Of a stretch of DNA of 21,807 nt, positions 3,753-21,807 are shown one piece after another. The stretch lies in the NCBI GenBank assembly GCA_048882385.1, contig JBHLRQ010000050.1:1-21807 (forward strand), given 5' to 3'. Under the pieces are notes generated by a model. It was not told where the DNA came from. It worked only from the letters and a program-made list of their open reading frames with translations, and made no database searches. Position 1 is the first letter of the stretch. Every line of letters begins with the position of its first letter. The position numbers and the translations under genes were made by a program. The DNA is from Candidatus Thorarchaeota archaeon (GTDB lineage: Archaea; Asgardarchaeota; Thorarchaeia; Thorarchaeales; Thorarchaeaceae).

Positions 3753-3776
3753 CGATAATCACAAGATAAAGGATTG

Positions 3777-6700
3777 ATGAATATGACAGAAGATTTCGCC
3801 ATTGAACTTCGTGATTACGATGAATCGATGGCAGAAGATATAGCAGCGATGTGGAATACCTGGGATGAATTATGGCCTGGTGGATTCACACAAGGTGTAC
3901 CTTACACAGCAGAACGGGTTCACAAGCAGTTTGGTAAATCAAATGCACTTGCTATTTTGATCGCAATTGATAGTGAGAACAAGAAACCAGTAGGCTCTTG
4001 TACCCTCTTCGAACATTGGCGAGATACAGAAGCAGCATATGTTGGTACATTGGGTGTGTCACCCGAAGTACTTGGTAAGAAGGTTGGAAAACGTCTACTA
4101 CTTGAATCGATAAAGAGGGCATCTGAGAAAGGATACACTCGTGTCGATTTGAACACCTGGCCTGGTAACATGAAGGCTGTTCCTCTGTATAAGAAGATCG
4201 GGATGATGTGGAATCCTGAGATGGGTGGAGTGCACATGGAGGACTACATCCCCGGTATCCTCAAACACCCCCTAAGCCACCCCTTCTTTGAAGCACTCGA
4301 GGGAAACCATGATTGGTATGATGTTCATGTACGTGAACCTATTCAGGCTCCTGACGAATACAAGCTCGATAGCTTAGCAATATATCCCTATGAGTTTCGG
4401 AGTGGAGAGAATAGTCTTGCAGTTACTGTTGACAGGTATGGACGTGGTATCTCAGCTATTGATAGGACAATCGATTCTTCAAGACTTAAGTTCTACGCTC
4501 GTGTTAATTCTCACCAAGTACTCTGTGGCATACCATATACCTATACATTAGAGGTAGTAAATGAAACTGGAGAGAGTCTTGAATTCTCCGCTCAATTGGA
4601 AGCGTTTGAAGGAATGGTGTTTGATGAAAAATCATCTCTGTTAAAAACTATTGAAGCTGGAGAAAGTATTGAATGGTCTGTGCCATTTCATCTCGAATCC
4701 TCAGCATCCATCTTCAGAAATGAGATTAAAGCACCAACGATTGTCACACACATTGAGGTTGAAGGAGCAGCTTCTGAGCTAGTCACGGGACTCAAGGTGC
4801 AGCCAGCTGCTGAAATTCGGACACGATGGGGATTAGCTCGAATAAAGGCTGGTGGACAAACCCAGATACCTCTGACTGTGGTAAGCAATATTGATACTAA
4901 GGCAACCACTCATGTAAATCTTGACACCAAGAAATCCTCCATAAAAGTAGTGTGTGAAAACAGTGAGATTAAGCTACCAAAAGATGGATTCGGTGGAACT
5001 GTACTTACGGTCACAGCAGATCCAGAGTTGGAAGAGGGAGTTCATGACATCTGGATCAGTTTGGAGATTGAAACAGACAAAGGATTGAGAGTGACTACAC
5101 GTCAGTTCAGAGTTCCAGTCTTCTGCTTGGGAGAGAGTGGAGTAGTGGTTGGTCACGACGATAGACAAAGACGACTTCTGATCACCTCACCTGTCTACAC
5201 AGCATCATTTGCTGAGGAGGGAGCTATTCTTCGCATTGGTAATCACTATTCCGCAGGTGAAACCCAGATGATGGTTCGCTCTGCTATTGGTCCTCCTTTT
5301 GGCATCAATCCCTTCCGATTTGCAGAACGAACACCATCTGTAGAGAAACTGGATAAAGAAACCGTTGTTTCCATGTCAGCAAAGCATCCTAATCGTCCTC
5401 TGGACATCCAGGAACGCACAAGGTTTGAACATGGAACTGGAACAATCCTGCACGAAGTATGGGTGACAAACACAAATTCAGAGAGTGAAACATTCCAACT
5501 CCGATTAATTGGAAGAGGTGGTGACATTTCGTTTGCTATGGGCAAGATGTACATACCTCTTTCATCCGGAGTTCTGGAAGCAAAATTAGGAAACTTCTAT
5601 TCAGTATACCCAGCAATTCCTGGAGAGCCATCTACCTTTGCAGAAGGATGGATCGCAAGTGAACAAGGGGGAATAGTCACAGGTCAGCTCTGGGACCACT
5701 CAAAGGTGGAAGAGGTCCGTTTGGGTCTCGGGCAAATGGGTATGATTAGCTATCCTCAGGTCACTCTAGAAGCGGGTGAATCACGACGAATATCTCAACT
5801 TTGGTACATTTACGGAGCTCAAAACTGGCAACAGGTTCAGATGGCTTGGCGCTCAAGAATTGAAGGATACTTCCAGAGCGAGGTCGAAGCAACCAATTTT
5901 GAAACTCCCAAAGGATTGGTCAACATAGAAGCTGAGCCAATAATTCTTCCCCACATCAGCGATGTTGATGTAAAGGTGAATCTGATTAAGTCTACAGTTA
6001 TTCCATTGGAAGGGAAACTTGAATTCTTGCCACCAAAGACTTGGCGTGCTTCTCTAAGTCCAGAAAGCGTTGAAGAAAATACTCCTGTGTCTTCGAAAGC
6101 CTCAATTGATGTTAAGTTGGTGCAGGATACATCCCTTCGCTTGGGATTAAAGCCTGGATCAAAGCATCCTGACGCCTTTTCGATACAGAGAGGGATGCTC
6201 GAACTGAAGACAATCTGGAATGTCAAAAAGCCTGTGACTATGATGCAGTTGGGATCTTCAAAAGGGAGTGTGGATATTGCAGAGGAGATTGATCAAGACA
6301 TGAAAGTCTTCCGTGTTGACAACGGACTGATTAATTATACAGTATCAGCAGACTATGGTGGCTGTCTAATCTCCCTGAAGAACAAGAAGGGAGTTGAGTA
6401 TATGACAAGTTCATTTCCAACAGCTGCACCAAAACCAGGAGGATTTTTCGACAATTACTTTGGTGGATTCCAGCCAACTGTCTTTGATGAAGAAATGGGA
6501 GAGGACTTTTCGAAGGCTAAAACGAACAAGGAGAAGATGACTGGAAAGACTGTTGAAATTGGCATCTGGAAAGGTATTGAAGTAGCTTGGGTTGGAAAGC
6601 TTCAGAAATTATCTAGAGGAGTAGACTTCAAGCTCCGATACCTGACTGCACCTGAAAGCCCACTCGTTCTCATCCAATGGACAATCTGGAATAAGACCAG

Positions 6701-7094
6701 TAGTCCGATGAGGTTTTGGCCGACATTTCTTGTAGATCCTGACATGTCGAATCAGCTGACAGATGGAATTTTACAAACCGTTTGGGATGGAGAAGTACAG
6801 GAGGTACGAACGGGAATGGTTCCAGTTGCAGTGACTCCTTCGAAAAGCATTATTTGGTTGAAGCCAAAAGAGAAGCAGAAGACCACTTCCGGATTCAGCT
6901 TCATGTTGGCTGGAACTGACTCGCGCTTTCTCGCTGTGAACTTCGGTGGGTCCATAATTTTAGGGGCAATCAATGGATTAACCTGGCTTATGCCTGGTGA
7001 GAAGAAAATAATCACAGCTTCACTCCTGGTTGACCCGGAAAGCTTCGAAGATCTAGAGATTCTTCAAGAAATTCTTGATAGGTTAGGTGGATAG
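3777..7094 (+). CDS. Large (~1,105 aa) GNAT N-acetyltransferase fusion protein with beta-rich C-terminal domains
   Basis: The N-terminal ~160 aa are GNAT: AYVGTLGVSPEVLGKKVGKRLLLESI (acetyl-CoA motif A), then RVDLNTWPGNMKAVPLYKKIG (motif B). The rest is beta-strand rich with no signal peptide or TM. Start is ATG 3777 or 3783 (TTG 3774 in the track). Confidence 0.85.
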   Translation: MNMTEDFAIELRDYDESMAEDIAAMWNTWDELWPGGFTQGVPYTAERVHKQFGKSNALAILIAIDSENKKPVGSCTLFEHWRDTEAAYVGTLGVSPEVLGKKVGKRLLLESIKRASEKGYTRVDLNTWPGNMKAVPLYKKIGMMWNPEMGGVHMEDYIPGILKHPLSHPFFEALEGNHDWYDVHVREPIQAPDEYKLDSLAIYPYEFRSGENSLAVTVDRYGRGISAIDRTIDSSRLKFYARVNSHQVLCGIPYTYTLEVVNETGESLEFSAQLEAFEGMVFDEKSSLLKTIEAGESIEWSVPFHLESSASIFRNEIKAPTIVTHIEVEGAASELVTGLKVQPAAEIRTRWGLARIKAGGQTQIPLTVVSNIDTKATTHVNLDTKKSSIKVVCENSEIKLPKDGFGGTVLTVTADPELEEGVHDIWISLEIETDKGLRVTTRQFRVPVFCLGESGVVVGHDDRQRRLLITSPVYTASFAEEGAILRIGNHYSAGETQMMVRSAIGPPFGINPFRFAERTPSVEKLDKETVVSMSAKHPNRPLDIQERTRFEHGTGTILHEVWVTNTNSESETFQLRLIGRGGDISFAMGKMYIPLSSGVLEAKLGNFYSVYPAIPGEPSTFAEGWIASEQGGIVTGQLWDHSKVEEVRLGLGQMGMISYPQVTLEAGESRRISQLWYIYGAQNWQQVQMAWRSRIEGYFQSEVEATNFETPKGLVNIEAEPIILPHISDVDVKVNLIKSTVIPLEGKLEFLPPKTWRASLSPESVEENTPVSSKASIDVKLVQDTSLRLGLKPGSKHPDAFSIQRGMLELKTIWNVKKPVTMMQLGSSKGSVDIAEEIDQDMKVFRVDNGLINYTVSADYGGCLISLKNKKGVEYMTSSFPTAAPKPGGFFDNYFGGFQPTVFDEEMGEDFSKAKTNKEKMTGKTVEIGIWKGIEVAWVGKLQKLSRGVDFKLRYLTAPESPLVLIQWTIWNKTSSPMRFWPTFLVDPDMSNQLTDGILQTVWDGEVQEVRTGMVPVAVTPSKSIIWLKPKEKQKTTSGFSFMLAGTDSRFLAVNFGGSIILGAINGLTWLMPGEKKIITASLLVDPESFEDLEILQEILDRLGG

Positions 7095-7654: not shown

Positions 7655-10600
7655 TTAGGTGTCCTCTCTCTTTTTGAATCTCAGATATCTCTTTGAATGT
7701 GGACTGGCAGCAATGATGAGTTGGAAACAACCTAATCCAACAAGAAGCCACAATTCGAGAGGTGAATGTACGGCTTCTGTCTGGAAGAGAGGTGCAGGAG
7801 GAGGCACAGGTGGAGCTGTAACTTCATGCGCCACGATATACACCATATCGTTTCCATAACATAGCACATCGCGACTGGATGTGCTGTAGAAATGCCCAAC
7901 ACATGGATCAAAATTGCTAGAGAGATCCTCCTTCCAATAGTGCCAAAGAAGCCGGGCAGTAGATCCATCAACTACATTGATGTATTCTTTATTGGTTAGT
8001 ACTAAATCAGACCATCCATCTGCATTCATGTCTTCAATGATGATTCGTGTGTCTTTTCCACCCATTACTAAGGGTGCGTTGTATCTCCAAACCTCAGTTC
8101 CAGAAAAGCTATAGGCAATTGCACCTTCTCTTTCAAGATTGACCACAACTTCATCCACACTGTCATTGTTGTATAGGTCTCCTGCGAAGAACTCTCTGAC
8201 CATACCAGTGGCGAAGTTGAGTGTAATGCTGCCACCCCCAATAAACTCAAACATATGGATGTCAGAACCAGAGTCCATCACTGCGAGGTCTGCAGATCCG
8301 TCTCCATTGAAATCACCTGCTGCAAGACCATAGGTTGATGTGGGTGTCACGGTTGTGAAGAGAGCACCATTTCCGCCATTATATATTCGAGCACTGAATA
8401 TCGAAGCACCCATGGCTATGTCTGCTGTTGTGCCTCCTCTGAAGTTACCGACAGCCATCCGATATGAAGTTGCAGTGGATGTAAAGCCATCTGCTTTTGT
8501 ATCGTAGAGTGCATTACCCACACCATCATACCATTCTATGTATACTTCACTGCCTCCTGACCACTGTCGAATCAAGACTGCAATTTCTTCGTAATCATAA
8601 CCTGCTGCATCACTGAAATCTGCGACTCTAACACCTCTAATTTCATGCGTGTCAAGTGCGCTTATGTGAAGTAGAGCCTGACCATCGACTCCATCAATCA
8701 CATAGAGGTCTCGTAAGCCAGTCCACACGGCCAAATCCTTTGTATTCCAGTCGTTAATGTACCCGATTTGGACATCAGATATCTTGGAATCAAATGTTAT
8801 ATTCCATTCCACCTGCATTGTCAAGCCATCAACGAGTGCAAGACTATACTTTCCATCAGTGTTCCGACCTGCGACAACAATCTCGTCAAGAGAGGTTCCA
8901 AAGATGTCATCCACCCAAACACCATAGACACTATTGACTTCCAATTCCCAATAGACCTCATGATTTTCATATGATGGAGGTACAACAAGTTCCGTTGGTT
9001 CAACACCTGAGACTGTGATGAGTTGCTCATTCTGCATATCCCAGACAACTAGCGTGTCAATCTCTGATCCACTTACGTTTGCTGCAATGACTTCACCAAG
9101 ATCGCCACCTGTGAAATTGAACCATAATGGTATACCATTCTTCCCATCTATGGCAGCTACGATACCCACATCATTGAGGTATACAGATGCCGCAATAAAG
9201 ATGTCAAGTCCTCCTGTCCCTCCTGCATTTCCAAAGTCTACATCCCAAATCATATGATTCACACCAGTGAGATTGTAATGCCACTGAATGTTTGTAGATG
9301 CCATCTCCTCTAGGTATAAGCCCTGGTCTAGAGTCGCACTAAGAATCTCTAAGGAGCTATCTCCATCAAAGTCATAGACATAGAATTCGTGAGTCAATCC
9401 AATGTTTATTGTCGAATTGTAATCGATAGAACTAGTCAATACATCAAGAATGTGTACTTGTCCGAAAGTGACAGAGCTTTGTACCCAAGAATATGCATAG
9501 ATAAGGTCCTCAAACCCATCATGGTTGAAGTCATAGGGGACTAATCCTGCATATGGAGTTGCAGTACTATCCGGACTCTTGTAGTAGATGGATCCATTCA
9601 ATGGATTCATGACGATGAGCGTTTCGTTGTAAGTCACGTATGCTAGTTGTTGTTCTGGGGCATTTGTGAAATTCCCGATTAGCATGGAGAAGATGTACGT
9701 TCCACCAGTCGAGTAACTACTCAGAAGACCGCCAGTGTAGTTGAGAACATGAATATACCCGCTGTCATCAGTGAAGACAATTTCATCATTGATATCGCCA
9801 GTAAGGTCACCCGTTATTACAGAAACCAATGGATTAACTGCATCTATGTAGCTCCAAACTAGGTCTCCTGTGGTGATATCAAAGACATACAGATTCGAGT
9901 CTTTAGATGTACAAATTATCTCAGAAATACCATTCAAATCAAGGTCGCTGAGGATAACATTAGAGAATCCGTCTGTTGCATCATCCGCATTAATCCAGAT
10001 TTGACTTCCATATTCGTCAATTGCTTCGATTATGCCCAAATCATAGGACGCTAGGATAATCTCCTCTCTCTCATCCTGATCCAAATCGTATGCTTGAAGC
10101 AGATCGGGATATAAAAGACCATCAATCAATGGGTTCTGGTCACCACTTGTTGGATAGGACCATAGCTGCTCTGAATACCAAAGACTGATTGGTCCCTCAG
10201 AGGGATCGATATACTCGAAGATATATACATCACCTCGCTTGGATGAAACTCCTATATCTTCCCAGCCATTGCCGTTGGTATCATAGACACTCACACCTGT
10301 GATTGGATTGTCAAATGAGTTAGAAAGCCAAGCCTCCTCATAGCTCATGAATCCTGTTCCGTTGGTAGAATGCTTCATCTCATACACAGCGAATTGGTCT
10401 TCAAAACCAACGACAACTTCCCTTCGTCCATCTGAATCAGTATCTCCTACATCGAGGTCAATAACATCTCGCAGGTGGTTCATTGTCCAGTCAGATTGAG
10501 GATTGATACCATACACAATATCATGAATGCAATACCAAAAACCCTTGTCAGAGATCACTCCAGGTGGAATATAGATCTTGTAGTTGAAGGTGGCTGAATA

Positions 10601-13600
10601 CATGAATCCTGACTCATCAGTTCCGATTACAGTAGGTGAGAAGATGGATAGCTGATAAATGGGGAATGGTGATCCCTCGATATAGTAATAGACATATCCA
10701 CCTGGCATTTCAGTTCTCGAGATATATCTTGGAATAGTGTTGAGTGTTTCTTGAGCGCTCCATTCTCTTCCTCTTGTTATACTTGAAACCATACCAATCC
10801 TGTCTTCTAACTCAACCCCAATTGTTTCATAGGTCACCACAATTGCGACTTCTTCTGATTCTAACTCGTCTATTGAGACAAACATTTCATCATCATAGGA
10901 AGTGGTTGCTTGATGTGGATTTGCTCCTGTGAAGTTAAAATCATGAATGCTCGTGACGACCCAAACATCGTGGTCAGCTTTTCCTGAACGTGTATAGACT
11001 GCTGACATAGCGATGGAGAAATTACCATCATTGAGTTTCACCACGTCAACATCATGAGTCTGGAAGTATGTCATATCATTGAAATTGGGATGATTATTGG
11101 TCCAAGCACCTGATAGATCATTTGCAATAAAAGCTGCTCCAACTCGGCCATAGACGGATCCAAAGAAAATATTGTAAGCATCATACATGAAGACAATACC
11201 AACATGGCTTGAATTGTATTCAAAGAGGCTCGGATAATATCGGTCGTAGAAGGTTGTCCCAATAGGTTGAATTCCATAGGTGTCCGGCCAGAGAATTGGT
11301 CCATGCCAGACACCAGCTGATACATCACCCCAGCACAGAGCAATGTAATGCTGACCCCCTGAATCCCAAACTTCCCAAGAGGCGTAGATATCACCAGTGG
11401 ATGGAATTAGAACGCTGGGCCGCGTTTCTGCCACAATAGTACTCAAATTGGTTGTATAAGCAAGACCAACTTGGTCCATCCACTTAACGCCCCAGGTCCA
11501 ATCATCAGCAGTTTCATTATACCATTGGAACCAAATCTCCTGACCGTTCTCATATAGCATCAGAATGCCTTCCGCCATAGCTCCATATACTCCATGTGCC
11601 ATATCCTTGATCGAACGTTCAGTAGTTATAGCATTCGGGAAGTCACCAGTATCGTATGCTGTGGATCGTAGTGGAACAATAGGGTAGTTGGGTGATGCAG
11701 TGACATATTCCACTTTCTGATACTGTGAGTCGCTGCCTGGTATCCACTCCCATAAGTCAAAGCCATTAGTGTGACCGATGACAATCTCCTGAGATCCATC
11801 CATGTCTTGATCATCAAGCGCCAAAGCACTGACTGGATTCCAATATGTTACCTCACTAGGAGCTTCCCAGACCTTGTAGAACGTGCCACCTTGACACTCA
11901 TAGATTTGTACAAAACCATTCTGACGAATCAATCGAGTATCTTCTACGCCACCAATTAGCACTTCTTTGTAACCATCTTGATCAGTATCACAGAGGGTCA
12001 TTGCATTGATGTAGTAGTATCTGAACTCTGAGAACTCAGGATTACCAACAAGATAGTATCTTCCCTCCAATGATGGAGATGTTACAAAGAACTCCTTGTC
12101 CTCAAAGCCATCAAAATCACCGACAGGGATGTTGTAGATGAAGAGATACGGTCCTGCTGCGACTGCAAGTTCGAGTTCTCCATTGTAGTCAAGATCATCA
12201 CCTGCAGCCATCGCAGTAATCTCTGTTACTAGATTGACGAATGCATACCTGTCGGCCCAGACTGAATCCCTCAGGTCGATTGAATACTGATAGGTAAGTA
12301 GGTCTCCTCCGTATAGACCAGCATCCTCAAAGATGTAGATCTGAAGATCTGATGCAACGACAAGCTCCTTTAATCCATCCCGATCAAGGTCGACATCAGC
12401 GACGAGATGCTTTGCATGATCCCAGATTCTTCTATTGAAGTCTCCAGAAATACCCTCTAGATCCTCGTAGAGGTATGGAGAAACATCTGTCACCGTTGTG
12501 TGATTGAGATCGAATGAACGGAACATACGTTTGTAATTGTTCATTGTTAGATGCTCAAACACGTATACATTATTGTCATAGTCACCCACAATTAGTTCTC
12601 CCTTCCCATCACCATCTATGTCTCCGGTATCAATAGAAAGAGTCCATTCCTCAAGATCATCATCATTGCTCCATGATTCATGAACATGGAATCCAATGTT
12701 ATTGTAGAGTTCCCATCCGTCTGCGGCACTACTCATTAGACTGAAGTCTAATTGAGCTACTCTTGGATAACTTGCAACAATGTAACTCTCAGTCGTATCG
12801 AACTCTGGAGCTGCCCAACCCATTCTCTGATTCCATTCTCGATATCCAGCTATTGTCCAATTGAAATCCATATCCCATCCCCAGTACTCGTACCATCTCT
12901 CAAGTGTATAGCCGCTCAGATACCCTCCGAGCTTTGGTACAATTCGAATGTCGGTGAAGTTTTGGTACTTCATATTGGTTTCAGGAAGTGGATTAGACAT
13001 TATCTTCTTGTCTTCAACCCAGACTGGATCCTCAGCAGTTCCTTCATTGATCCAGCAAGTCGCACCCATCTTGTTTGCATAGCTTAGTATTATGTCAAGA
13101 TCTCCATCTGAGTCAATATCCACCAACTCAGGTTGGCCCCATATTTTACTGGTTTCCTTTGCATTAATCTCATTGAAGTAACCTCGGACATAGGTGAAGT
13201 TCAAAGCCCCACTTTCATACCACATGTTTCGTGCCATGTGGACATATCCATTTGACACAACAAAATCGAGATCTCCATCACCGTCGAAGTCAGCAAAGTC
13301 CAGTTTAGGTTCAACCTTTGCCAGGTTGATGAGTTCTGTAAGCTCACCAGTGGTATCTATTTCAACCAGGTTTATCCTGTGATTGAATGGCTGTGTATCT
13401 GAATCTCTATAGTAGAAAACAACTGTGGCTCTTGAAGGTGCATCTTCTTCTACAGTAAGTGGAATGCTCTCAATTGGGATTGAAGGGTTGAAGAGACCCA
13501 ATGCAATGAAGGGCCAGACACTATACTCGTTGACAACATCATAACCATCCACGAAGAGGGGTGCTTCAACAGAAACATTCAGCCAACCTTCTATTGGTAT

Positions 13601-16600
13601 TTCGACATTGATATTATTGAAGTAGGCTTGAGTGGTCAAATCAAGTTCTGGCGGACTGGCGATAGGTACAACATCAGGAACTGAGAAAGCTCGTATCTGC
13701 CCCTCATTCGTCCCCATCAAGTAGTTGAACGTAGAGCTCCCAAATAACCATGGGTTCAGGGTAGCATAACTCCATGAGTTATAGGTCGTTGCTACATCTG
13801 GAGTCCAAGGCATTCCATACTGCCAGTTCCATGTTGGCACATCTGGTTCATTTCCAACATAGACCATGTCCCAGATGTTAGCTCCAAATGTGTAGAATGA
13901 ATCATCTCCAGAGTCGTATATCACATCATATTCGGATGTTGTGGAATTATACATTATAGCATTGATTTCTCCAGTCACGCTTCCTACGATGATCTTGATT
14001 GGTTCATCTAAACCCTGAAGATAACTCATACCATCCAATCTTAAAGGTCCAATAGTTATGCTCAATGCATCAGTTAATGTGTTGTAAACTTGTTCGAGTT
14101 CAATTCCATTGACCTGGTAGAATCCTGAGTTATTCACCATTATTTTGGCATATCGGAACCAATCCCATCTCCTCTGAGAGAGAGAGGTGTCAACATCAAC
14201 ACCCACTACATCAACTCCAGGATTAAATCTGTCAGATGGAATGAGCTCCCAGTCTGTGCCATCTTGGGATATGTAAAACCAGAAGTCAGAACTAAGGTGA
14301 CTCAAATCGGTACCCGCCTTGAAATAGATGGAAAGATCGTCGTTACTATTGGCTCCACCAGTTCCTTCTTCATCAAGACCAAAGTCTAGGATAGCTGTGG
14401 CATTATCAACACCAACAAGAAATGCATTGAAATTGGAGAAATTCCCATCGAGAACGCCTCCATGATGGACTGGTCCTGCCATCCCGGAGTTGAACGGGTA
14501 CACGGAAGCATCTGGTTCAAAAATGGAGAGGCCTTCATTCCATACATACTGTATTGGTTCATTCTCTATGATTGTGATATTGACGGGGTCGTGGTAGGTT
14601 ACATTATGAGCATATATCACCCTGTCTACGTAATTATCGAGACCCCAGAATCCAAAGGTTTCCCATGGCTTGAATTCCCGATACACTTTTTGATAGTCAT
14701 AGGTCTTTGTCCCTGCGTTCCACTCTAGTGTGAAGACTCCTTGCCCTTGAGCCACCAATACTATTTCATCACCTGGTGTGTTGTCAAGCTCACCGACAGC
14801 CATTGATTGAATTGGAGTCCATGTGTAGTTCTCAGATGTCCAGTTGAGATAGTAGTGGTTATCATAGATCAATGGGAATGGCTGACCGTTTATCATGATG
14901 GATAAACCATCATTCTCGAAGACATATACGGTTCCATCTCTTGAACCACAAATGATCTCTGGAAGACCATTGTAGTTTGTGTCACCAGTTTCCAGGCTGT
15001 AGATCTTTTCTCCCACGTCGAGGGTTGCCACTTCGTCATAGGTGATCCAATGCTCCTCTACGAATGGATATCCTGAGTGCTTGTCATACTCGAAGAGGTG
15101 TAGCTTTCCATCCCATCCACCAGCTATGATGTCTGGCCGATAGTCTCGATCTACATCATCAACCTTCAATGAGAATACTCTGAACATGTCTGGTGAAGTC
15201 CATACGTGATCAAATTGATTCTCCATGTTTGCATATGGGTCATAGAGATGACGCTGCTCAAACACGTAAACGAAACCATCAGAACATCCAGCAACGATCT
15301 CGATGAGGTTGTTGAGGTCTGTGTCTCCAAAATCGAGTGCCATAACATCACTTTGGAACACACTATCTCCTGTGTCCCAGACCTTGTCCCATAGTTTTGT
15401 TTGGGTGTTCAGTCTAAACACATGAATCTGATTGTCATACAAGTAACCTCCACCAAGTGCAAGAAAGCCCGTATCCTCGTCATATGCAATGGCATGTATT
15501 GCAGCCTTTGAACGCCATGGTTCGTAATTCATTGCATAATCGTTTGCTCTATCACCGAGGACCTGACCAATGTCCTGATCTGATGGCATATTATGAACTG
15601 TAGGGTTGAACATCTCAGCAATTTTGCTCTGGAGATCAGGCGAGAGATCCTCCCAACCTGCAGGGTACTGGTCAAAGGCAGAGTCCTCATCTGTTCCATT
15701 CATGGGTGCACTTGGTACATATCCGAATGAGCCAACCAACAGCATTCCCAAGAATGTCAGCCCAATGAACATCACAGCAAGACTACTTCCACCCTTTTTG
15801 CTCTTCTTCTTCTTGGAAGTCTTATCCTTCGGTTCCTTCTTAGTTGAGCTACTCTTCTTCTTAGTACTCTCCTTAGTTTCTTCTTCGGGAATGTCCTCGG
15901 TAAGTGCGGCTAGTTCAGGAGGTTTCTCTCCAGGTTCCTCACCACGCCGCTTCTTTCTATACTTCAGAATCATCGGCACTCCGTAGAGCAGGAACAATAT
16001 TGCAAATACTCCGACCCCCATTCCAATAGCCAGATAGACAAGCGGACTAATTGGCTCAGGATAGGTTGGAGTTGCGCCTACGGTGAAGGTTCTAATAGCC
16101 ATATATTCTTCATCAAAATAGTCTACAGCGAATACTTGGAGTTCATAGGTGCCAACATTCCAATACATGTCTGTATAAGTCCAAGTCATTGTTGCTGGAT
16201 TGTAGCTCATCGTAAAGTTATCGCTCCAACCAGAACTCGTGTTATACCTGAACTCCATGCTCACGAATGGCGTGAAATTAAGCACATTTACATCAACAGT
16301 CTGAGCATTGGTGACAAGTGCCTGAGGCATTAGAATATCCATTGATGCCTCGCTACGCGAGATGGTTATGGCTTGCTCATAATCTGTTTCACTAGTGAAT
16401 GCCAATGGATCAGTTCCAATCGCAATCTCCAGACCATCCGGATAGCCGTCCCCATCTGAATCCACTGATGCAGGATCAGTACCATAGACATAATATTCGG
16501 TACCATCAGAAACACCATCGCCATCTGAGTCCTGATCGAATATCCCTCCACCCAACCTGTAGAGTTTCAATTCAAACTCGATACCATCTGGAAGACCGTC

Positions 16601-19600
16601 AAAGTCCGTATCAAATTCCAACGTGTCTGGAATGCTATCTCCATCTGAGTCATCATTCAATGGGTCCGTATGGTAGAAATTAACTTCTGCTCCATCAGGT
16701 AACCAGTCGTCATCACAATCTGGATCTGTGGCTAACGTTGTGTAAATAGCCTGTGAAGGCACATATCGTAATATTGGGGACTCGTCAGCTATAATAAATG
16801 GCGTTGACTCTGCAAGTGCGTACATCTCTGCAGGTTCCATTCCTAGCGACCAGTTACTTGGTGGCCACGGACCATATGGCCAAACCTCAACTAAGGTCTC
16901 TTCGAAATCATAGAGTTCATCGCCGTCTGTGTCATTGTACAATGCTGAAGTGTTGTATACCCAGGTTTCCCACCAATCCGTGATTGTATCATTATCAGTG
17001 TCATTGTTTGCAGGATTTGTATTGAATATCATCACTTCTTGGTAGTCAATTAGAAGGTCATCATCAGAATCTCGATCAACCGGTGATGTATTGTACCTGA
17101 AGACAAGCGTCATTGCTCTGTATGGATAAATCAGTCCTGATACATTCTCAATTGCCATCTCAGCTCCATCAGGAATGAAATCATGATCAGTATCTTTGTT
17201 TGTGGGATCGAGTGGAATGGGATCAAGCCAAGGCACTATCCCAGACGCGAGATATAGCTCCATAGCATCAGAGAGCCCATCCTCATCTGTGTCTGATTCA
17301 GTGACGTTTGTGTATACCCACTCTTGATACAGGAATCCCGATTCATTCATTTTGTATATGTAGAATCCATTAACCTCTTGATAGTCATTCAGTGGGAATG
17401 TCATCTCACCAAGCTCGTTTGGCTCAGTTATTGAATCACCATCTGTATCCCACGATAGTGGGTCACAGTCGTAGAGTTCGATTTCCTCACCATCAGACAG
17501 TAGATCATCGTCCGTGTCATAATCAAACGGATCAGTGTAATAGACGAAGATTTCTTCGTAGTCTGTGAGTCCATCATTATCCGAATCCTCGTCCATAGGA
17601 TCTGAACCATAGACCAACACCTCATCCCCGTCGTATATCATATCCGCATCGCTATCATCGGTCATGGGATTAGTGTGCCAGAAGTAGACCTCTTCTCCGT
17701 CACCTAGACCGTCGAAATCAGAGTCCCAGACATTTGGATTGGTGAAGAAGGTGTAAAACTCATCACCGTCAGAAATCATATCACCATCAGTGTCTTGCTC
17801 CCGTGGATCAGAGCCGAGAAGAATCTCTTGGAGGTCAAATAACCCGTCATCATCAGTGTCAGGGTCATTTGGATTGGTATGGTTGCTATACGGGTTCAAT
17901 ACACCTTCCAAGCCATCTAGAATTCCATCATCGTCAGAATCACCATCAGTGGGATCAGTAGGCGGAGTTTGAGCAAGCTCATACCCATCACTGTTGAGCC
18001 ACATTCCTGGCTGAGGTGTACGGTCAGTGACGCCTGTATCTCCATCTGTGTCCGGGTTACACGGATTCGTAAACACATGTTTGTTCTCAGGTTCGCCTTC
18101 TTCATCATAGACTATGATTGTGAACCCAGCAACCTCTGCACCATCATTCATGTCCTTAAGGAACAGGTATGCCTGAGAATCAACAACACCATTGTAAAGC
18201 TGCAATGCAGAGTCATCATCTGTATCAGCATCTAATGGATGAGTGAAGCCACCGTTGAAGATGAGCGGGTCCGGGTCCATTGCCCATCCAGTTTCAGTGC
18301 TGGTATCTTCAGTGTCGTTATAGAGTGAAGGGTCTCCGTAGTAAGCACCCATAGGACCTTCATCCCCATCTAGAAGCCCATCACCGTCCGTGTCAGGATT
18401 TAGAGGATCAGTGCGGTCATTGTATGACTCGCCTCCGATGATGATTTCTGTGACAGTTGGAGTCACATTTGAGATGTCGAGTTTGGTGTAGATTTCATAT
18501 GCATCAGTGAGACCATCGCCATCACTATCCTGTTCGAGTGGATTGGTCCCATAGACCTCCACTTCCTTGTAATCATCAACATCATCCCAGTCAGTGTCTT
18601 CGCGCATTGGATTGGTTCCTAGGTCCCACTCCCGACCATCAAGTAGACCATCTCCATCGCTATCAGGATTGGAAGGGTCCGTCTTCATGGTTTGGAACTC
18701 GAGTTTGTCGTTTGCTCCATCGTCGTCTGTATCAGCCTTGTTCTTATCCAATCCCGGCGTCGCGTCCTCAAACGGGTCTCCGAGACCATCCCCATCCGTG
18801 TCGAATCCTACACCCGACTCATTGTATTCTGCTTCACCCTTATTTGGTGAAAGGTCCCAAGGGCCACCAGGTTCCCAAGTGAATTTGGCTGAATCGCTGA
18901 ACATCAAGAATCGGAACTTCACCTTGATTGTGAATATCAGCCGTAACGTTATCTTCATTGGCGCTGGGTCCGCAAAGTCTTGGAAGAACGTCAGTATGAT
19001 TTCCAGCGTCCCATCTATGGTTATGGCCACGATAATGAGCTCTATGGGTATATGCACTGCTACACCGAATATGATGGTGAGCGTCATACTAGATACTTCT
19101 GGTGCCACTGCAGTGGCTGCTTTCTTGACTATGTCAATTGCTATCTCAAAGTACACTTCGACAGTAATCATATCTAGACCTAGGAATTCTGCCACCGCAT
19201 TCAGTGCGCCGCCACCCACTCCAGCGGTCAGGAAATCAAGAAGCGTGAACACTTTTCCGATGTGGATCTTAATGTGAAGGCTCCACTCCACAATCTTGAA
19301 GAAATTGTCCCACTCGAACATTCCACCTCTGAAGGTGAAAAGATTCACTACGAATCTGGCTGAACCTTCGAAGGATAGTTTGAGACCGAGGGAAGTGAGC
19401 ATTGTCTTCATGAGGGCGTTCTTCTCAGTGTCGAAACCTCCGATGCCTAGCTCAGCATAGAACTGTGGGGATATCTCGAAAAAGCTCAGGATAGTCTTGA
19501 AGAAGTCTCCAATGTTCTCAGTGGAGAATACTTCGCGAGCATCGAAAATCATACTCACAATCATGTCGAATATGGGGTTCAGATCAATCGCGAAATTGGC

Positions 19601-21807
19601 TTTGATGCCAAGTGCATACTCCAAGTCAAAAAGGGACCAGTCACCAAGACCAATTGGGAACTTGCCTGAGAATCCTAATAGGTCATCAAGACCTGCAAAT
19701 AATCCTTCAATAGTATCCTCAATGTCATCAAGGACTGGATTAATCAGACCACTCAGCCAATCGAACACCTTCCCAAGGAGCCATTTCACACCATTGGTGA
19801 AAATGTCCTTGATATCCATGAAGAACTCGAGTGTGTCTTCTAGCATGGATTCATCGAAACCTACTCCTAGAAGTCCTTCCGCATACCCAAGTATCTCATT
19901 GATGACCTCCGTGGAGGTTGGCATGTCTTCTTTACTGATGCCAAATGCATCAGGGAAGAAGGACTGCAAAAGTTTCAGGAAAGCATCGATTGGGACATCA
20001 TCAAATGCTGGTAACGAGCCTACAAGTGAACCAGCAGCCATTAGAACCGATTGCATTATACCTTGGAATGATTGACCTTTAATGCCCTGAATCATTGTGA
20101 TGATGCCGCCAACTATCTGTCCAGCAGTATCCAAAACGCTTTCAGAGCCCGGCAGGCCGCTAATGACATCTTCAACATCCAGATACGATAAGACATTCTT
20201 TATCATGGTCGGAGCATCACTAAGTTCAGCAACGAAATTGCTGACAGTCTTACTGACCATGTTCTTCAGAGCTTCACTATCGGATACTAGAGCAATGAGA
20301 CCCATGATTGGCTTTACTGCACTATTAAGCGCCTCAATTACCTGAGCTGCATCACCTCCTCCTATGACTTCATTAATTAAATCTGCAGCAATTTCGAATA
20401 AGTCAGGTAGTTGATTCTTGTCAAAGGCTTCATTGAAGAAACCGGTAAGCATGGTCATGGTGTCTCGAATAACATCTTTGATCGCTTGTGTAGCACCACT
20501 TGTTTCTGAATCGAGGATACTAGAGATTTGTGACTTGAAACCGTTGACATCACTAAAAGCTCCTTCTTGGAACGATTTGATGACTGCCATCATCTGTTTT
20601 GCAAGGTCTTCGGCACCACCTGGGATGTTCGATGGTCCAACAATCTCCTCCAGCATCTCGACCCCGAACTCCAGGAAAGATGTTGTGTCAAAATCATCGA
20701 GTAGGTCGAAGGCAGACATACCCATCTTCACGATAGACATAACCTTGTCAACAGCATCACTCAATCCCGACACTGAGAGGATTGATCCCAGAAGGTCAGT
20801 GCCTATTGTTTGTATAAACTTCACGAAGTCCTTGCCTGAGAGGAAGTCAATTGTGGCTTCCACGAAACTGATGATTCGCGGAAGTAGAGTTGAGACCTGA
20901 CCAGAGGTCATTCCAAGTGTTGCAGCAAGAGTCTTGTTCAGAAATGCCTGTAGAGTGTTCTTTGTGAAGAAACTGAATATTGTATCAAATACACCTTTAC
21001 CTTCAGAAACAACATTACTAATGACGTCCCAGAGACCATCCTCGGTACCAAGAATCTGGCCAATGAAGTCTTTAACCATCTGAGGAACAGAATCAGGTAA
21101 GAGCGCCGTAATGAGCTCTCCAACTATTTCCAATATACTAGTAATATCACCTCTGAAGTTGAAGAGAGCTTTCAATATAATGTTCAAGTAGTCCTTGAAC
21201 TCTGCCATGAATGGAAACTCATTCGCTATAGCTTGTACAATTGATTTTAGTGGAGAATCAAGATCGAAGTCTTTCACAATTCCTATAATTGGTTCAAGAA
21301 CTTCGAACAAACCCTTGATGGTTTCTATGAGGTCTGTGGGTATAGATATTACAGTTGAACCGGAGTCTCCCAAGACACTCAAAAGAACATCAATTATCTC
21401 ACCAATAGGTCCTCTGAGAGCAGAGAGTAGAGGAATCTCACCAAGAATATAGTCACTAGATGATAATTCTGAAGCAGAACTGATTTTTATTGCAGGTGAG
21501 AAGTCTTCAGGTAGATTCTCCTCCTCAACATCGACCAGCTTTCCTTCTTCACTCATCTGATAGAATGCAGGCTCTATGGTGGGAGCATGCTCTGCCCACA
21601 TGGCATCAGTTCTCTTTTGCAGATCCTCCTCATCAATCTCACCTACAGCATCGACCGGTTCAATGCTTCTCTCAAAGAAAGTTTGGAAGTTATCGCCATA
21701 AATTTTCAATGCGATGGTTCTCAAATCACCAGCAGCGTTTTCGTAGTCACTTCTAACATCCGCTCTTGTTGAAATTGCCTCATGAATTGTCCACATATCA
21801 AAGAATG
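7655..21807 (-). CDS. Giant (>4,716 aa) multi-pass cell-surface protein with TSP3-like and FG-GAP/VCBS-like repeats; 5' end probably beyond the right window edge
   Basis: One uninterrupted 14.1-kb frame. Upstream of ATG 21796 the frame stays open to the edge (..TTC TTT GAT ATG) and the visible N-terminus has no signal peptide, so the gene is probably truncated by the window. Repeat motifs and three hydrophobic helices are visible in the translation. Confidence 0.93.
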   Translation of the reverse strand, partial: FFDMWTIHEAISTRADVRSDYENAAGDLRTIALKIYGDNFQTFFERSIEPVDAVGEIDEEDLQKRTDAMWAEHAPTIEPAFYQMSEEGKLVDVEEENLPEDFSPAIKISSASELSSSDYILGEIPLLSALRGPIGEIIDVLLSVLGDSGSTVISIPTDLIETIKGLFEVLEPIIGIVKDFDLDSPLKSIVQAIANEFPFMAEFKDYLNIILKALFNFRGDITSILEIVGELITALLPDSVPQMVKDFIGQILGTEDGLWDVISNVVSEGKGVFDTIFSFFTKNTLQAFLNKTLAATLGMTSGQVSTLLPRIISFVEATIDFLSGKDFVKFIQTIGTDLLGSILSVSGLSDAVDKVMSIVKMGMSAFDLLDDFDTTSFLEFGVEMLEEIVGPSNIPGGAEDLAKQMMAVIKSFQEGAFSDVNGFKSQISSILDSETSGATQAIKDVIRDTMTMLTGFFNEAFDKNQLPDLFEIAADLINEVIGGGDAAQVIEALNSAVKPIMGLIALVSDSEALKNMVSKTVSNFVAELSDAPTMIKNVLSYLDVEDVISGLPGSESVLDTAGQIVGGIITMIQGIKGQSFQGIMQSVLMAAGSLVGSLPAFDDVPIDAFLKLLQSFFPDAFGISKEDMPTSTEVINEILGYAEGLLGVGFDESMLEDTLEFFMDIKDIFTNGVKWLLGKVFDWLSGLINPVLDDIEDTIEGLFAGLDDLLGFSGKFPIGLGDWSLFDLEYALGIKANFAIDLNPIFDMIVSMIFDAREVFSTENIGDFFKTILSFFEISPQFYAELGIGGFDTEKNALMKTMLTSLGLKLSFEGSARFVVNLFTFRGGMFEWDNFFKIVEWSLHIKIHIGKVFTLLDFLTAGVGGGALNAVAEFLGLDMITVEVYFEIAIDIVKKAATAVAPEVSSMTLTIIFGVAVHIPIELIIVAITIDGTLEIILTFFQDFADPAPMKITLRLIFTIKVKFRFLMFSDSAKFTWEPGGPWDLSPNKGEAEYNESGVGFDTDGDGLGDPFEDATPGLDKNKADTDDDGANDKLEFQTMKTDPSNPDSDGDGLLDGREWDLGTNPMREDTDWDDVDDYKEVEVYGTNPLEQDSDGDGLTDAYEIYTKLDISNVTPTVTEIIIGGESYNDRTDPLNPDTDGDGLLDGDEGPMGAYYGDPSLYNDTEDTSTETGWAMDPDPLIFNGGFTHPLDADTDDDSALQLYNGVVDSQAYLFLKDMNDGAEVAGFTIIVYDEEGEPENKHVFTNPCNPDTDGDTGVTDRTPQPGMWLNSDGYELAQTPPTDPTDGDSDDDGILDGLEGVLNPYSNHTNPNDPDTDDDGLFDLQEILLGSDPREQDTDGDMISDGDEFYTFFTNPNVWDSDFDGLGDGEEVYFWHTNPMTDDSDADMIYDGDEVLVYGSDPMDEDSDNDGLTDYEEIFVYYTDPFDYDTDDDLLSDGEEIELYDCDPLSWDTDGDSITEPNELGEMTFPLNDYQEVNGFYIYKMNESGFLYQEWVYTNVTESDTDEDGLSDAMELYLASGIVPWLDPIPLDPTNKDTDHDFIPDGAEMAIENVSGLIYPYRAMTLVFRYNTSPVDRDSDDDLLIDYQEVMIFNTNPANNDTDNDTITDWWETWVYNTSALYNDTDGDELYDFEETLVEVWPYGPWPPSNWSLGMEPAEMYALAESTPFIIADESPILRYVPSQAIYTTLATDPDCDDDWLPDGAEVNFYHTDPLNDDSDGDSIPDTLEFDTDFDGLPDGIEFELKLYRLGGGIFDQDSDGDGVSDGTEYYVYGTDPASVDSDGDGYPDGLEIAIGTDPLAFTSETDYEQAITISRSEASMDILMPQALVTNAQTVDVNVLNFTPFVSMEFRYNTSSGWSDNFTMSYNPATMTWTYTDMYWNVGTYELQVFAVDYFDEEYMAIRTFTVGATPTYPEPISPLVYLAIGMGVGVFAILFLLYGVPMILKYRKKRRGEEPGEKPPELAALTEDIPEEETKESTKKKSSSTKKEPKDKTSKKKKSKKGGSSLAVMFIGLTFLGMLLVGSFGYVPSAPMNGTDEDSAFDQYPAGWEDLSPDLQSKIAEMFNPTVHNMPSDQDIGQVLGDRANDYAMNYEPWRSKAAIHAIAYDEDTGFLALGGGYLYDNQIHVFRLNTQTKLWDKVWDTGDSVFQSDVMALDFGDTDLNNLIEIVAGCSDGFVYVFEQRHLYDPYANMENQFDHVWTSPDMFRVFSLKVDDVDRDYRPDIIAGGWDGKLHLFEYDKHSGYPFVEEHWITYDEVATLDVGEKIYSLETGDTNYNGLPEIICGSRDGTVYVFENDGLSIMINGQPFPLIYDNHYYLNWTSENYTWTPIQSMAVGELDNTPGDEIVLVAQGQGVFTLEWNAGTKTYDYQKVYREFKPWETFGFWGLDNYVDRVIYAHNVTYHDPVNITIIENEPIQYVWNEGLSIFEPDASVYPFNSGMAGPVHHGGVLDGNFSNFNAFLVGVDNATAILDFGLDEEGTGGANSNDDLSIYFKAGTDLSHLSSDFWFYISQDGTDWELIPSDRFNPGVDVVGVDVDTSLSQRRWDWFRYAKIMVNNSGFYQVNGIELEQVYNTLTDALSITIGPLRLDGMSYLQGLDEPIKIIVGSVTGEINAIMYNSTTSEYDVIYDSGDDSFYTFGANIWDMVYVGNEPDVPTWNWQYGMPWTPDVATTYNSWSYATLNPWLFGSSTFNYLMGTNEGQIRAFSVPDVVPIASPPELDLTTQAYFNNINVEIPIEGWLNVSVEAPLFVDGYDVVNEYSVWPFIALGLFNPSIPIESIPLTVEEDAPSRATVVFYYRDSDTQPFNHRINLVEIDTTGELTELINLAKVEPKLDFADFDGDGDLDFVVSNGYVHMARNMWYESGALNFTYVRGYFNEINAKETSKIWGQPELVDIDSDGDLDIILSYANKMGATCWINEGTAEDPVWVEDKKIMSNPLPETNMKYQNFTDIRIVPKLGGYLSGYTLERWYEYWGWDMDFNWTIAGYREWNQRMGWAAPEFDTTESYIVASYPRVAQLDFSLMSSAADGWELYNNIGFHVHESWSNDDDLEEWTLSIDTGDIDGDGKGELIVGDYDNNVYVFEHLTMNNYKRMFRSFDLNHTTVTDVSPYLYEDLEGISGDFNRRIWDHAKHLVADVDLDRDGLKELVVASDLQIYIFEDAGLYGGDLLTYQYSIDLRDSVWADRYAFVNLVTEITAMAAGDDLDYNGELELAVAAGPYLFIYNIPVGDFDGFEDKEFFVTSPSLEGRYYLVGNPEFSEFRYYYINAMTLCDTDQDGYKEVLIGGVEDTRLIRQNGFVQIYECQGGTFYKVWEAPSEVTYWNPVSALALDDQDMDGSQEIVIGHTNGFDLWEWIPGSDSQYQKVEYVTASPNYPIVPLRSTAYDTGDFPNAITTERSIKDMAHGVYGAMAEGILMLYENGQEIWFQWYNETADDWTWGVKWMDQVGLAYTTNLSTIVAETRPSVLIPSTGDIYASWEVWDSGGQHYIALCWGDVSAGVWHGPILWPDTYGIQPIGTTFYDRYYPSLFEYNSSHVGIVFMYDAYNIFFGSVYGRVGAAFIANDLSGAWTNNHPNFNDMTYFQTHDVDVVKLNDGNFSIAMSAVYTRSGKADHDVWVVTSIHDFNFTGANPHQATTSYDDEMFVSIDELESEEVAIVVTYETIGVELEDRIGMVSSITRGREWSAQETLNTIPRYISRTEMPGGYVYYYIEGSPFPIYQLSIFSPTVIGTDESGFMYSATFNYKIYIPPGVISDKGFWYCIHDIVYGINPQSDWTMNHLRDVIDLDVGDTDSDGRREVVVGFEDQFAVYEMKHSTNGTGFMSYEEAWLSNSFDNPITGVSVYDTNGNGWEDIGVSSKRGDVYIFEYIDPSEGPISLWYSEQLWSYPTSGDQNPLIDGLLYPDLLQAYDLDQDEREEIILASYDLGIIEAIDEYGSQIWINADDATDGFSNVILSDLDLNGISEIICTSKDSNLYVFDITTGDLVWSYIDAVNPLVSVITGDLTGDINDEIVFTDDSGYIHVLNYTGGLLSSYSTGGTYIFSMLIGNFTNAPEQQLAYVTYNETLIVMNPLNGSIYYKSPDSTATPYAGLVPYDFNHDGFEDLIYAYSWVQSSVTFGQVHILDVLTSSIDYNSTINIGLTHEFYVYDFDGDSSLEILSATLDQGLYLEEMASTNIQWHYNLTGVNHMIWDVDFGNAGGTGGLDIFIAASVYLNDVGIVAAIDGKNGIPLWFNFTGGDLGEVIAANVSGSEIDTLVVWDMQNEQLITVSGVEPTELVVPPSYENHEVYWELEVNSVYGVWVDDIFGTSLDEIVVAGRNTDGKYSLALVDGLTMQVEWNITFDSKISDVQIGYINDWNTKDLAVWTGLRDLYVIDGVDGQALLHISALDTHEIRGVRVADFSDAAGYDYEEIAVLIRQWSGGSEVYIEWYDGVGNALYDTKADGFTSTATSYRMAVGNFRGGTTADIAMGASIFSARIYNGGNGALFTTVTPTSTYGLAAGDFNGDGSADLAVMDSGSDIHMFEFIGGGSITLNFATGMVREFFAGDLYNNDSVDEVVVNLEREGAIAYSFSGTEVWRYNAPLVMGGKDTRIIIEDMNADGWSDLVLTNKEYINVVDGSTARLLWHYWKEDLSSNFDPCVGHFYSTSSRDVLCYGNDMVYIVAHEVTAPPVPPPAPLFQTEAVHSPLELWLLVGLGCFQLIIAASPHSKRYLRFKKREDT
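7658..7815 (-). other. C-terminal Pro-rich stalk, membrane anchor and basic tail of the giant protein
   Basis: APPVPPPAP, then LELWLLVGLGCFQLIIAAS, then PHSKRYLRFKKREDT-stop. Confidence 0.7.
7830..15510 (-). repeat. FG-GAP/VCBS-like (integrin-alpha-type) Ca-binding beta-propeller repeats in the giant protein
   Basis: About 29 copies by hand count of (G/A)D-h-(D/N)-x-DG-x-x-(D/E)-h-h-h, e.g. FADFDGDGDLDFVVS, TGDIDGDGKGELIVG, VGDTDSDGRREVVVG, PYDFNHDGFEDLIYA, AGDFNGDGSADLAVM, IEDMNADGWSDLVLT. C-terminal copies carry PQQ-like 'D..TG.L.W' blade ends. Boundaries are approximate. Confidence 0.85.
15719..16042 (-). other. Internal transmembrane hairpin of the giant protein (TM1, 61-aa charged loop, TM2)
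   Basis: LVYLAIGMGVGVFAILFLLYGVPMIL (16042-15965), then KYRKKRR...TKKKSSSTKKEPKDKTSKKKKSKKGGSS, then LAVMFIGLTFLGMLLVGSFGY (15781-15719). Confidence 0.85.
16400..18802 (-). repeat. Thrombospondin type-3-like (prokaryotic TSP3) Ca-binding repeats in the giant protein
   Basis: About 26 copies by hand count of D(T/S)DxDGxxDxxE....(G)T(D/N)P, e.g. DSDGDGLLDGREWDLGTNP, DSDNDGLTDYEEIFVYYTDP, DSDGDGYPDGLEIAIGTDP. The copies are diverged at the DNA level. Confidence 0.88.

Follow-up and report, generated by a model that had tools for sequence, protein, structure and literature searches.

A giant surface-protein gene of a Candidatus Thorarchaeota genome and its origin by fusion of two neighbouring genes

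LapA and MpIBP are giant Ca2+-dependent surface adhesins of bacteria, which belong to the RTX type. For Asgard archaea, cell–cell contacts are central to ideas on the origin of eukaryotes, and the available text on Candidatus Lokiarchaeum ossiferum describes cells with no ordered surface layer (S-layer) and with 'complex surface proteins protruding from a single membrane', which it leaves unidentified (PMC9834061). The accessible part of the work on the proteome of P. syntrophicum reports that no S-layer protein was detected (PMC11284389), and a preprint on giant genes states only that, among archaea, the Asgard group has the largest number of proteins longer than 10,000 amino acids (aa). Here, we describe a giant gene that occupies positions 7655–21807 of contig JBHLRQ010000050.1 in the Candidatus Thorarchaeota assembly GCA_048882385.1 (the whole contig, 21,807 nucleotides, is further termed the window). 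A first-pass annotation, made from the letters of the window, had taken its product for a membrane protein with two large extracytoplasmic parts and a previously undescribed architecture. Both statements are supported, the latter in that neither a family model (Pfam, NCBIfam) nor a paper was found for it. Comparison with related loci identifies the gene as an in-frame fusion of two neighbouring surface-protein genes, here termed A and B, which are separate in most relatives. With a probability of roughly 0.6, we consider the product to be a genuine envelope protein of ~4,890 aa, derived from a conserved Asgard gene pair and acting in adhesion or cell contact as a 1:1 A–B complex.

In the literature searched, no description of the A–B pair or its fusion was found. 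PMC9258230 refers to Liu et al. 2021 when it names 'integrin repeat-containing' proteins among the Asgard signatures. The main text of the Liu et al. preprint, as far as available, makes no mention of integrin, FG-GAP or thrombospondin, and protein B may already be listed as a repeat protein in the supplements of Liu et al. or PMC9834061.

The full-length gene and its junction

The window is one whole contig (C50) of a 3.70-Mb genome in 256 contigs, with an estimated completeness of 95.3% and contamination of 4.94%; its GC content is even, 0.39–0.49. All parts of the giant gene lie on the minus strand and their coordinates are given as window positions. The open reading frame runs from 21805 to a stop codon at 7655–7657 and comprises 4,716 codons, its 5′ end being open at the contig edge. 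Since random sequence gives about one stop per 20 codons, a frame of this length is not expected by chance. The last 77 bases of the window (21731–21807) recur without a mismatch at the end of contig C158 from the same assembly, and a scripted join of the two contigs extends the frame 180 codons upstream to a stop. The gene start lies on C158, where a GGAGGAG Shine-Dalgarno sequence is followed by ATG-CAT-ATG and then by the signal peptide MNRRLMRVQLVSAVFITIILVGFIPQAVWA/GEF, which is typical of the Sec type. The complete joined protein has 4,890 aa; C158 supplies the initial 174 codons, with the start and the signal peptide among them. The join is considered sound because the homolog P0003 (4,887 aa, 95% identical, encoded on a 48-kb contig) has the same N-terminus and two further full-length relatives, P0004 and P0005 (4,832 and 4,826 aa; 57% identity in the head query), start alike; across its whole length the P0004 lineage retains 45% identity. 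The single giant frame of more than 4,700 aa, as well as its extent, was correctly recognized in the first-pass annotation, which overlooked on which strand the frame lies, that a signal peptide is present and that 174 more residues are encoded upstream; the recovery of the full gene that it had proposed was achieved through the 77-base overlap.

Membrane topology was assessed by a Kyte-Doolittle (KD) scan with a 19-residue window, together with conservation, in full-length numbering. Apart from the signal peptide (residues 10–28), three transmembrane (TM) segments were predicted: TM1 (2096–2114; positions 15986–16042, KD 2.59), TM2 (2183–2201; 15725–15781, KD 2.27) and TM3 (4857–4875; 7703–7759). 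These four segments are matched in position in P0003, P0004 and P0005, while the TM sequences themselves have diverged; an extra hydrophobic patch at 1073–1115 has charged residues inside. The TM1–TM2 loop of 69 residues holds 21 Lys and Arg and 12 Asp and Glu, the stretch after TM2 is acidic, and TM3 is followed by a short basic tail, SPHSKRYLRFKKREDT in translation (7658–7702). Because the loop and tail are basic and the stretch past TM2 is acidic, the order out–TM1–in–TM2–out–TM3–in fits the positive-inside rule. The ectodomains contain 48 N-x-S/T sequons and the loop contains none. The first-pass annotation had proposed the same succession of TM1, cytoplasmic loop, TM2 and TM3 with a basic tail, which hydropathy and the conserved positions bear out. 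For archaeosortase/exosortase-type sorting signals (PGF-CTERM and like), no NCBIfam/TIGRFAM model matched at E≤1, and TM3, the putative C-terminal anchor of the B part that is present also in unfused B proteins, seems to be a simple membrane anchor.

Relatives of the head region, where full-length, are mostly only ~2,050–2,330 aa long, with a single TM helix and a basic tail at the C-terminus. Fifteen loci were fetched, of which ten are unfused, four are fused through the junction and one ends inside the loop at a contig end. In all ten unfused loci gene B directly follows gene A (one B is cut by a contig end), with 2,074–2,219 codons in A and 2,630–3,175 codons in B. Gene A encodes a signal peptide, a head of ~1,100 aa, thrombospondin type 3 (TSP3) repeats, one TM segment and a Lys-rich tail, and gene B encodes a signal peptide, FG-GAP propellers and one TM segment. 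In BLAST comparison, A is collinear with residues ~1–2,145 of the giant protein, and the match to B starts at ~2,183–2,260. In the six closer B genes that are complete, this match is collinear to ~4,686–4,888, and in the three most distant ones it falls into several pieces. TM1 stands where unfused A has its single C-terminal TM segment, and is the anchor of the ancestral protein A.

The sequence around the junction shows how the two genes were joined. In nine of the ten unfused loci the C-terminus of A is a basic run, then GG and one or two more residues (KKGG[A/D/E/V/K], KEGGI, KRGGAS), and in most of these loci the codons spell AAGGGAGG or AAAGGAGG, i.e., a GGAGG Shine-Dalgarno sequence for B, whose ATG or GTG start lies at most 16 bases past the A stop or overlaps it. 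The conserved KKGG end of A is dictated by the ribosome-binding site of B, which its codons contain. B opens with a basic n-region, next to which comes a hydrophobic core; in L033 and L035–L038, loci of the Thorarchaeota family, this core ends in G-x-F-x-x-[IV]-P. At the junction of the window, the DNA AAAAAGGGTGGAAGTAGTCTTGCTGTGATG is translated as KKGGSSLAVM, the former TAG stop is visible out of frame and the n-region of B is gone; in a second fused clade the junction differs, reading AAGGGAGGAAGTTCTAAGGGCAAGATG with a relic TAA out of frame. Junction comparison resolves the loop (15782–15985), which contigs of two runs cross without gaps, into the former A tail, a degenerate B Shine-Dalgarno sequence AAAAAGGGTGGA and the relic out-of-frame TAG, and comparison with the ten unfused loci assigns TM2 to the core of the former B signal peptide, still followed by G-x-F-x-x-[IV]-P. 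As judged from these comparisons, the giant frame is an in-frame fusion of A and B, TM2 is the former signal peptide core of B, the loop is the Lys-rich tail of A together with relic intergenic sequence, and the fusion came about by loss of an A stop codon that lay within the ribosome-binding and start region of B. The junction is a clean example of a signal peptide turning into an internal TM helix.

A head-domain tree of 39 rows (seven fused, 25 unfused and seven cut by contig ends) needs three changes for the fused state. The first is in the clade of the window, to which the unfused G372 (83% identity) is sister; the second is in the clade of G348 and P0005, nested among unfused rows, with branches of 98–100% support between these two Thorarchaeota clades; and the third is in the distant P0015, which is 34% identical and collinear across 4,453 alignment columns. 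By this tree the fusion arose independently at least three times. Such repeated natural fusion is Rosetta-stone evidence that A and B act together. A search for the same architecture in other genomes, suggested in the first-pass annotation, returned the fused full-length homologs P0003–P0005 and those of G364, G347, G348, G360 and G361.

A chimeric assembly, or a sequencing error that removed a stop codon, may be suspected because the gene lies on two contigs and the metagenome-assembled genome comprises 256 of them at 4.94% estimated contamination; the contigs of one run also break near the junction, where a strain variant is present. However, contigs of two runs from different studies bridge the junction without a gap (12671–18430 and 14840–16705; the run of the former may be the window's own source), no indels were listed, and contigs of three runs continue past the right end of the window. 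None of the 21 runs listed for it was of RNA. The strain variant of the loop (~15,733–15,841, run X4), read by eye, is also in frame. In addition, the fusion is shared by G364, G347, G360, G361 and P0003 and is independent in G348, P0005 and P0015. An artefact, which the first-pass annotation had named as the outcome that would overturn its proposal, is rejected on the strength of the bridging contigs and the fused homologs in other assemblies, and retains a negligible probability.

The first-pass annotation also saw in the protein one apparatus whose two ectodomains are coupled through the cytoplasm. The two ectodomains stand; the single device does not, as the protein is a derived fusion of what in most relatives are two ordinary single-anchor type-I proteins. 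If the loop were nevertheless a signalling or mechanical device, the similar length and charge in three fused lineages (57–77 aa with 19–23 Lys and Arg) would speak for it, but the loop equals an ordinary A tail plus relic intergenic sequence and shows no domain or motif in Pfam and NCBIfam. Since it is not conserved, and lokiarchaeal A ends merely in ...KKKKGGA right after its TM segment, a signalling role is very unlikely. The fusion may simply enforce co-expression, and it probably fixes the stoichiometry of A and B. The propeller part would form a loop tethered at both ends only if TM2 stays uncleaved; if signal peptidase still cuts after TM2, the frame would encode a polyprotein.

Head, repeat array and propellers

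The first ~1,150 residues gave no significant Pfam match. AlphaFold2 modelling of residues 1–1160 of the window protein (P0001), with 51 aligned sequences, reached a predicted local distance difference test score (pLDDT) of 77.8 and a predicted TM-score (pTM) of 0.65. In this model, the end of an N-terminal mixed α/β region with no known family (residues 1–184; 21254–21805; no significant Pfam family) is followed by an all-α region (185–704; 19694–21253) of ~25 helices, the last of which is ~50 residues long, with pLDDT mostly 80–93 and again no Pfam match. Next comes an amphipathic β region (705–980; 18866–19693) with ~10 long strands of 8–19 residues between 710 and 977, and then the TSP3 repeats. 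Modelled alone, the β region reached pLDDT 83.7 and pTM 0.69. In nine of its ten strands one face is hydrophobic (mean KD +1.6 to +3.8) and the opposite one polar or charged (−2.2 to 0), and the short helices between the strands are hydrophobic as well. An amphipathic helical region and a hydrophobic β region were already noticed in the first-pass annotation, and the model and the strand pattern agree with it.

Searched against the PDB with Foldseek, the whole-head model had no match at E≤1e-3. The four top matches were large lipid-transfer proteins, i.e., MTP, lipovitellin, vitellogenin and ApoB100 (E 2e-3 to 4e-2, TM-score 0.06–0.10). Tc-toxin chains and an alginate lyase ranked next, with outer-membrane barrels lower in the list. 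For the β region alone FepA was best (E 4e-4), and autotransporter β-domains matched with TM-scores of 0.25–0.38. The likeness of the modelled β region to outer-membrane barrels is loose and one of architecture only, with no family membership implied. A fold search in BFVD matched the TSP3 repeats only, and the ESM Atlas gave no usable head match. With no Pfam and no significant PDB match, the head of ~1,100 aa is a new domain without known relatives. It is tempting to think of it as a lipid-engaging device, be it an amphipathic barrel of the outer-membrane type that would penetrate a partner cell's membrane or a lipid-binding cavity like that of large lipid-transfer proteins, so that A–B would make a physical, possibly lipid-exchanging contact with syntrophic partners; we hold this to be improbable, but if true it would provide a conserved molecular handle on the cell–cell contacts invoked in models of eukaryogenesis.

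The head is followed by an array of TSP3-type Ca2+-binding repeats (16427–18802), presumed to be a stalk. Residues 1160–2020 contain 21 strict DxDxDxxxDxxE motifs and 25 looser Dx[DN]xD motifs, close to the ~26 repeats that had been counted by the first reading, and Pfam TSP3_bac (PF18884) matches with 33.9 bits at a cut-off of 25. The region contains 25.8% Asp and Glu and is almost free of Cys. Between the array and TM1 lies a membrane-proximal module of ~100 residues (16058–16375), β-rich by eye and unassigned. An Ig-like domain had been proposed here, for which Pfam gave no match (0 families for 16031–16408).

Ectodomain 2 had been read as FG-GAP-like propellers, and Pfam confirms it: the whole protein matches PF13517 with 45.6 bits (cut-off 26.9), and when Pfam was also run on ten separate protein segments, FG-GAP or FG-GAP_3 was found at E≤1e-3 in all six segments of this ectodomain, in five of them above the Pfam cut-off. 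The first propeller region (14306–15724) covers the first 473 residues of B, its most conserved part, with 74 of the 473 columns invariant among 46 sequences. The rest (7760–14305) consists, according to Pfam, of FG-GAP/VCBS-type and PQQ/carrageenase-like propellers with unassigned inserts. One B segment matches Beta-prop_CGLA, the λ-carrageenase propeller, with 51.7 bits, and PQQ_2 matches also. Three B segments searched by sequence against the PDB gave nothing below E 0.1, and a regular expression for the FG-GAP Ca2+ loop, too strict a pattern, gave no matches. A BNR-type propeller considered for the middle of B is unsupported, a single Asp-box-like motif having been found; one insert may be discoidin/CBM-like.

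Ectodomain 2 also gave partial Pfam matches (11606–15724) to the eukaryotic BBS7 propeller, BBS2_Mid and ITFG2, and its PDB sequence search gave chance-level matches to kaptin. For the BBSome BBS2/BBS7 propellers, PF23743 scored 36.6 bits over profile positions 184–254 of 299 only, with no stretch of the whole protein passing on its own and a longest single-stretch segment match at 183–254 of 299; PF14783 scored 37.5 bits on one segment, over ~28 residues. As the match is partial, the region lies outside the membrane by topology and the likeness is that of FG-GAP proteins in general, the protein is not assigned to the BBSome proteins. All these matches, kaptin included, probably reflect a generic similarity of FG-GAP-like propellers, and those of the BBS/ITFG2 type may interest work on the origin of such eukaryotic propellers.

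The λ-carrageenase-like and PQQ-type matches, taken together with the lipid-transfer proteins at the top of the whole-head search and with the strongly hydrophobic face of the head sheet, can be read in terms of nutrition, with the propellers and inserts of B binding glycans and the head of A binding lipids or other hydrophobic compounds, so that the complex would bind or process polymers or lipids as substrates. This explanation is unlikely, given that no catalytic family scored above its cut-off, the lipid-transfer matches are weak, and no conserved hydrolase or transporter genes lie beside the pair in the loci read.

Distribution, proposed function and neighbourhood

The distribution of A was searched with its first 980 residues. 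Among length-matched proteins there were four matches, the window's own product and three giants. Among shorter proteins there were 54, and all 20 that carry a taxon are Asgard (Thorarchaeota 13, Promethearchaeota 3, Lokiarchaeota 2, Heimdallarchaeota 1, Hodarchaeales 1). A 97%-identical match is labelled Candidatus Thorarchaeota, as are all the closest named relatives, in agreement with the Asgard host that the first-pass annotation had thought of. No SSU rRNA was detected in the genome, and the host is identified by the annotations of these relatives. Within 1.84 billion representative proteins, 70 matches were obtained at E≤1e-3, 50 of them at E≤1e-30, and every named match of the A head is annotated 'hypothetical protein'. 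Among 400 genomes drawn from the phylum, the A head is present in 96, including 49 of 85 in the family of the window, with matches in several other families. The first propeller of B was found in 81 of the 400 genomes at E≤1e-20; by list comparison 76 of the 81 also match A, and most B matches sit a few kb downstream of A on the same contig. Homologs of B are annotated 'hypothetical', 'FG-GAP repeat' or 'PQQ-binding-like'. In L. ossiferum, B is NEF87_004126 and a 2,113-codon A frame lies directly upstream. The A-head family defined here comprises sequences that are homologous over the ~1,000-aa head, have a TSP3 array and a TM segment behind it and adjoin a B-type propeller gene; so far it is Asgard-only.

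Several variants of this arrangement were noted. Smaller paralogous pairs, A′–B′, are adjacent in both of the loci read (L048 in G329:C19 and L050 in G336:C4). There, A′ (1,582–1,589 aa) combines a signal peptide and the β part of the head with TSP3 repeats, a TM segment and a Lys-rich tail. B′ (1,941–1,959 aa) also starts with a signal peptide and lacks a C-terminal TM segment. Behind the pair lies a third gene, whose product of 607–625 aa has a signal peptide and is anchored at its C-terminus. Similar small pairs in G318, G325, G327 and G328 are suggested by matches that share a contig. In G067:C1, at ~1,641,000–1,680,200 (L041, L049), four giant genes are ordered A1-B1-B2-A2, the second pair thus being B-then-A. 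In G384:C3:166027–168983 the A head is split over two frames (690 and 1,542 aa), which points to a frameshift or a pseudogene, or else to an error in sequencing. The A signal peptide shows a conserved ...[FSW][IV]PQ[AV]...A before the likely cleavage site from Thorarchaeota to Lokiarchaeum (C158, L039, P0003–P0005), and the end motifs of the A and B signal peptides may be an Asgard-typical feature.

We propose that A and B would assemble one to one on the outside of the single membrane. The TSP3 array, stiffened by Ca2+, would be a stalk that keeps the hydrophobic head at a distance from the cell, and the propellers of B (~2,650 aa with inserts) would provide a binding platform near the membrane. 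The complex could serve adhesion to, or contact with, partner cells, matrix or particles, and would be one of the 'complex surface proteins' on Asgard cells that lack an S-layer. Ca2+-dependent adhesion or contact would be its likeliest role.

Some observations weigh against this proposal. The topology is supported by a simple hydropathy scan and conservation, and about half of the unfused rows of the head-domain tree were scored by the length of the open frame, not by reading a stop codon. The cytoplasmic tails have no recognizable domain, so that no link to the cytoskeleton follows from them, and the propeller matches of the λ-carrageenase-like and PQQ/BamB-like kind suit substrate binding equally. 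A complex prediction for the first propeller of B and the last TSP3 repeats with the membrane-proximal module of A, one of many possible domain pairs, scored 0.02 and speaks neither for nor against binding. Finally, the distribution is patchy: A is present in 25 of 90 high-quality genomes of the phylum sample, in 10 of 27 genomes of its own genus and in none of 135 genomes of one family (f22).

This patchiness bears also on another explanation, namely that A and B are structural parts of the cell coat which replace an S-layer and shape or protect the membrane and its protrusions. Asgard cells without an ordered S-layer and with many surface densities are described in the available parts of PMC9834061 and PMC11284389, and both proteins are very large and membrane-anchored. 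Yet a core coat is expected to be nearly universal, which the counts given above are not, and no lattice-forming domain was recognized in Pfam and NCBIfam scans; a scaffold is therefore doubtful. Because of its patchy presence the gene pair is regarded as accessory, which fits a niche-specific adhesin and weighs against a general role in the Asgard envelope. Adhesion or contact by an A–B complex remains our preferred explanation. Through this analysis an anonymous 'hypothetical protein' becomes a concrete experimental target, including in cultured L. ossiferum.

The remaining genes of the window have other predicted products. A truncated molybdopterin oxidoreductase gene lies at 3–1025 on the minus strand. 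On the plus strand, positions 1125–2956 hold a PadR-family regulator gene and a BtrH_N/DUF4872 gene whose start it overlaps by four bases, and the two look like a small operon; a cobalamin adenosyltransferase gene follows the latter at 3023–3607. A protein of 1,106 aa is encoded at 3774–7094 (plus strand), convergent with the giant gene; its N-terminus is a GNAT acetyltransferase (52.2 bits), and its remaining ~950 residues match no family except for a weak FixG_C Ig-like match. On C158, four unrelated-looking open frames of 307, 364, 397 and 507 aa lie upstream of the giant gene's start.

Comparison with known systems

RTX adhesins share with protein A the general plan, in which an anchor is joined through a long, acidic extender of Ca2+-binding repeats to a head at the far end, and both are very large, extracellular and poor in Cys. 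They differ in that the A–B repeats are of the TSP3 type, not RTX or BIg, and the anchor is a C-terminal TM segment after Sec-type export; moreover, the head of A is new and works with, or is fused to, a second giant protein made of propellers.

GFFKR is the membrane-proximal motif of integrin α, and no motif of that type is present in the tail SPHSKRYLRFKKREDT. The integrin thigh and calf leg families were likewise absent from the Pfam matches, and no VWA, βI or integrin-β domain was found in the A part with Pfam and NCBIfam. What A–B does have in common with integrin α and with bacterial integrin-type propellers (PMC3192720) is Ca2+-binding FG-GAP propeller blades, a type-I anchor, a short basic tail and a second type-I partner alongside, whereas A–B has several propeller regions instead of one seven-bladed head and no cytoskeletal adaptor motifs.

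Thrombospondins and COMP contain, as A does, DxDxDGxxDxxE Ca2+-binding type 3 repeats in a long array; the TSP_C lectin-like domain, EGF repeats and coiled-coil oligomerization regions of these proteins gave no Pfam matches here. The Myxococcus TSP3 proteins CglD (NF033765) and MtsD (NF047639), named in NCBIfam for gliding motility and cell cohesion, resemble A in the repeat region only: CglD scored 119.8 bits at a cut-off of 400, its best stretch covering profile positions 102–249 of 1,124, and MtsD scored 30.2 bits at a cut-off of 800.

Further comparisons concern the predicted fold of the head. As in the outer-membrane barrels FepA, Hbp/EspP/BrkA and BamA, the β region is predicted to consist of long antiparallel amphipathic strands, but TM-scores are 0.13–0.38 (best 0.33–0.38 at E 4e-4 to 2e-2), identity is 7–12%, no Pfam family matches and the host of A–B has a single membrane; the resemblance is one of fold only. 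Large lipid-transfer proteins also place a helical domain before large amphipathic sheets; neither sequence nor Pfam supports this similarity, no Vitellogenin_N-type domain having matched, and with E values of 2e-3 or weaker it is a lead only.

Set beside these systems, the A–B protein belongs with the giant Ca2+-dependent surface proteins, among which it is a new variant specific to Asgard archaea, distinguished by a new head domain and by its origin from a gene fusion, and the A–B pair is a good candidate for the unidentified structures on the surface of Asgard cells.

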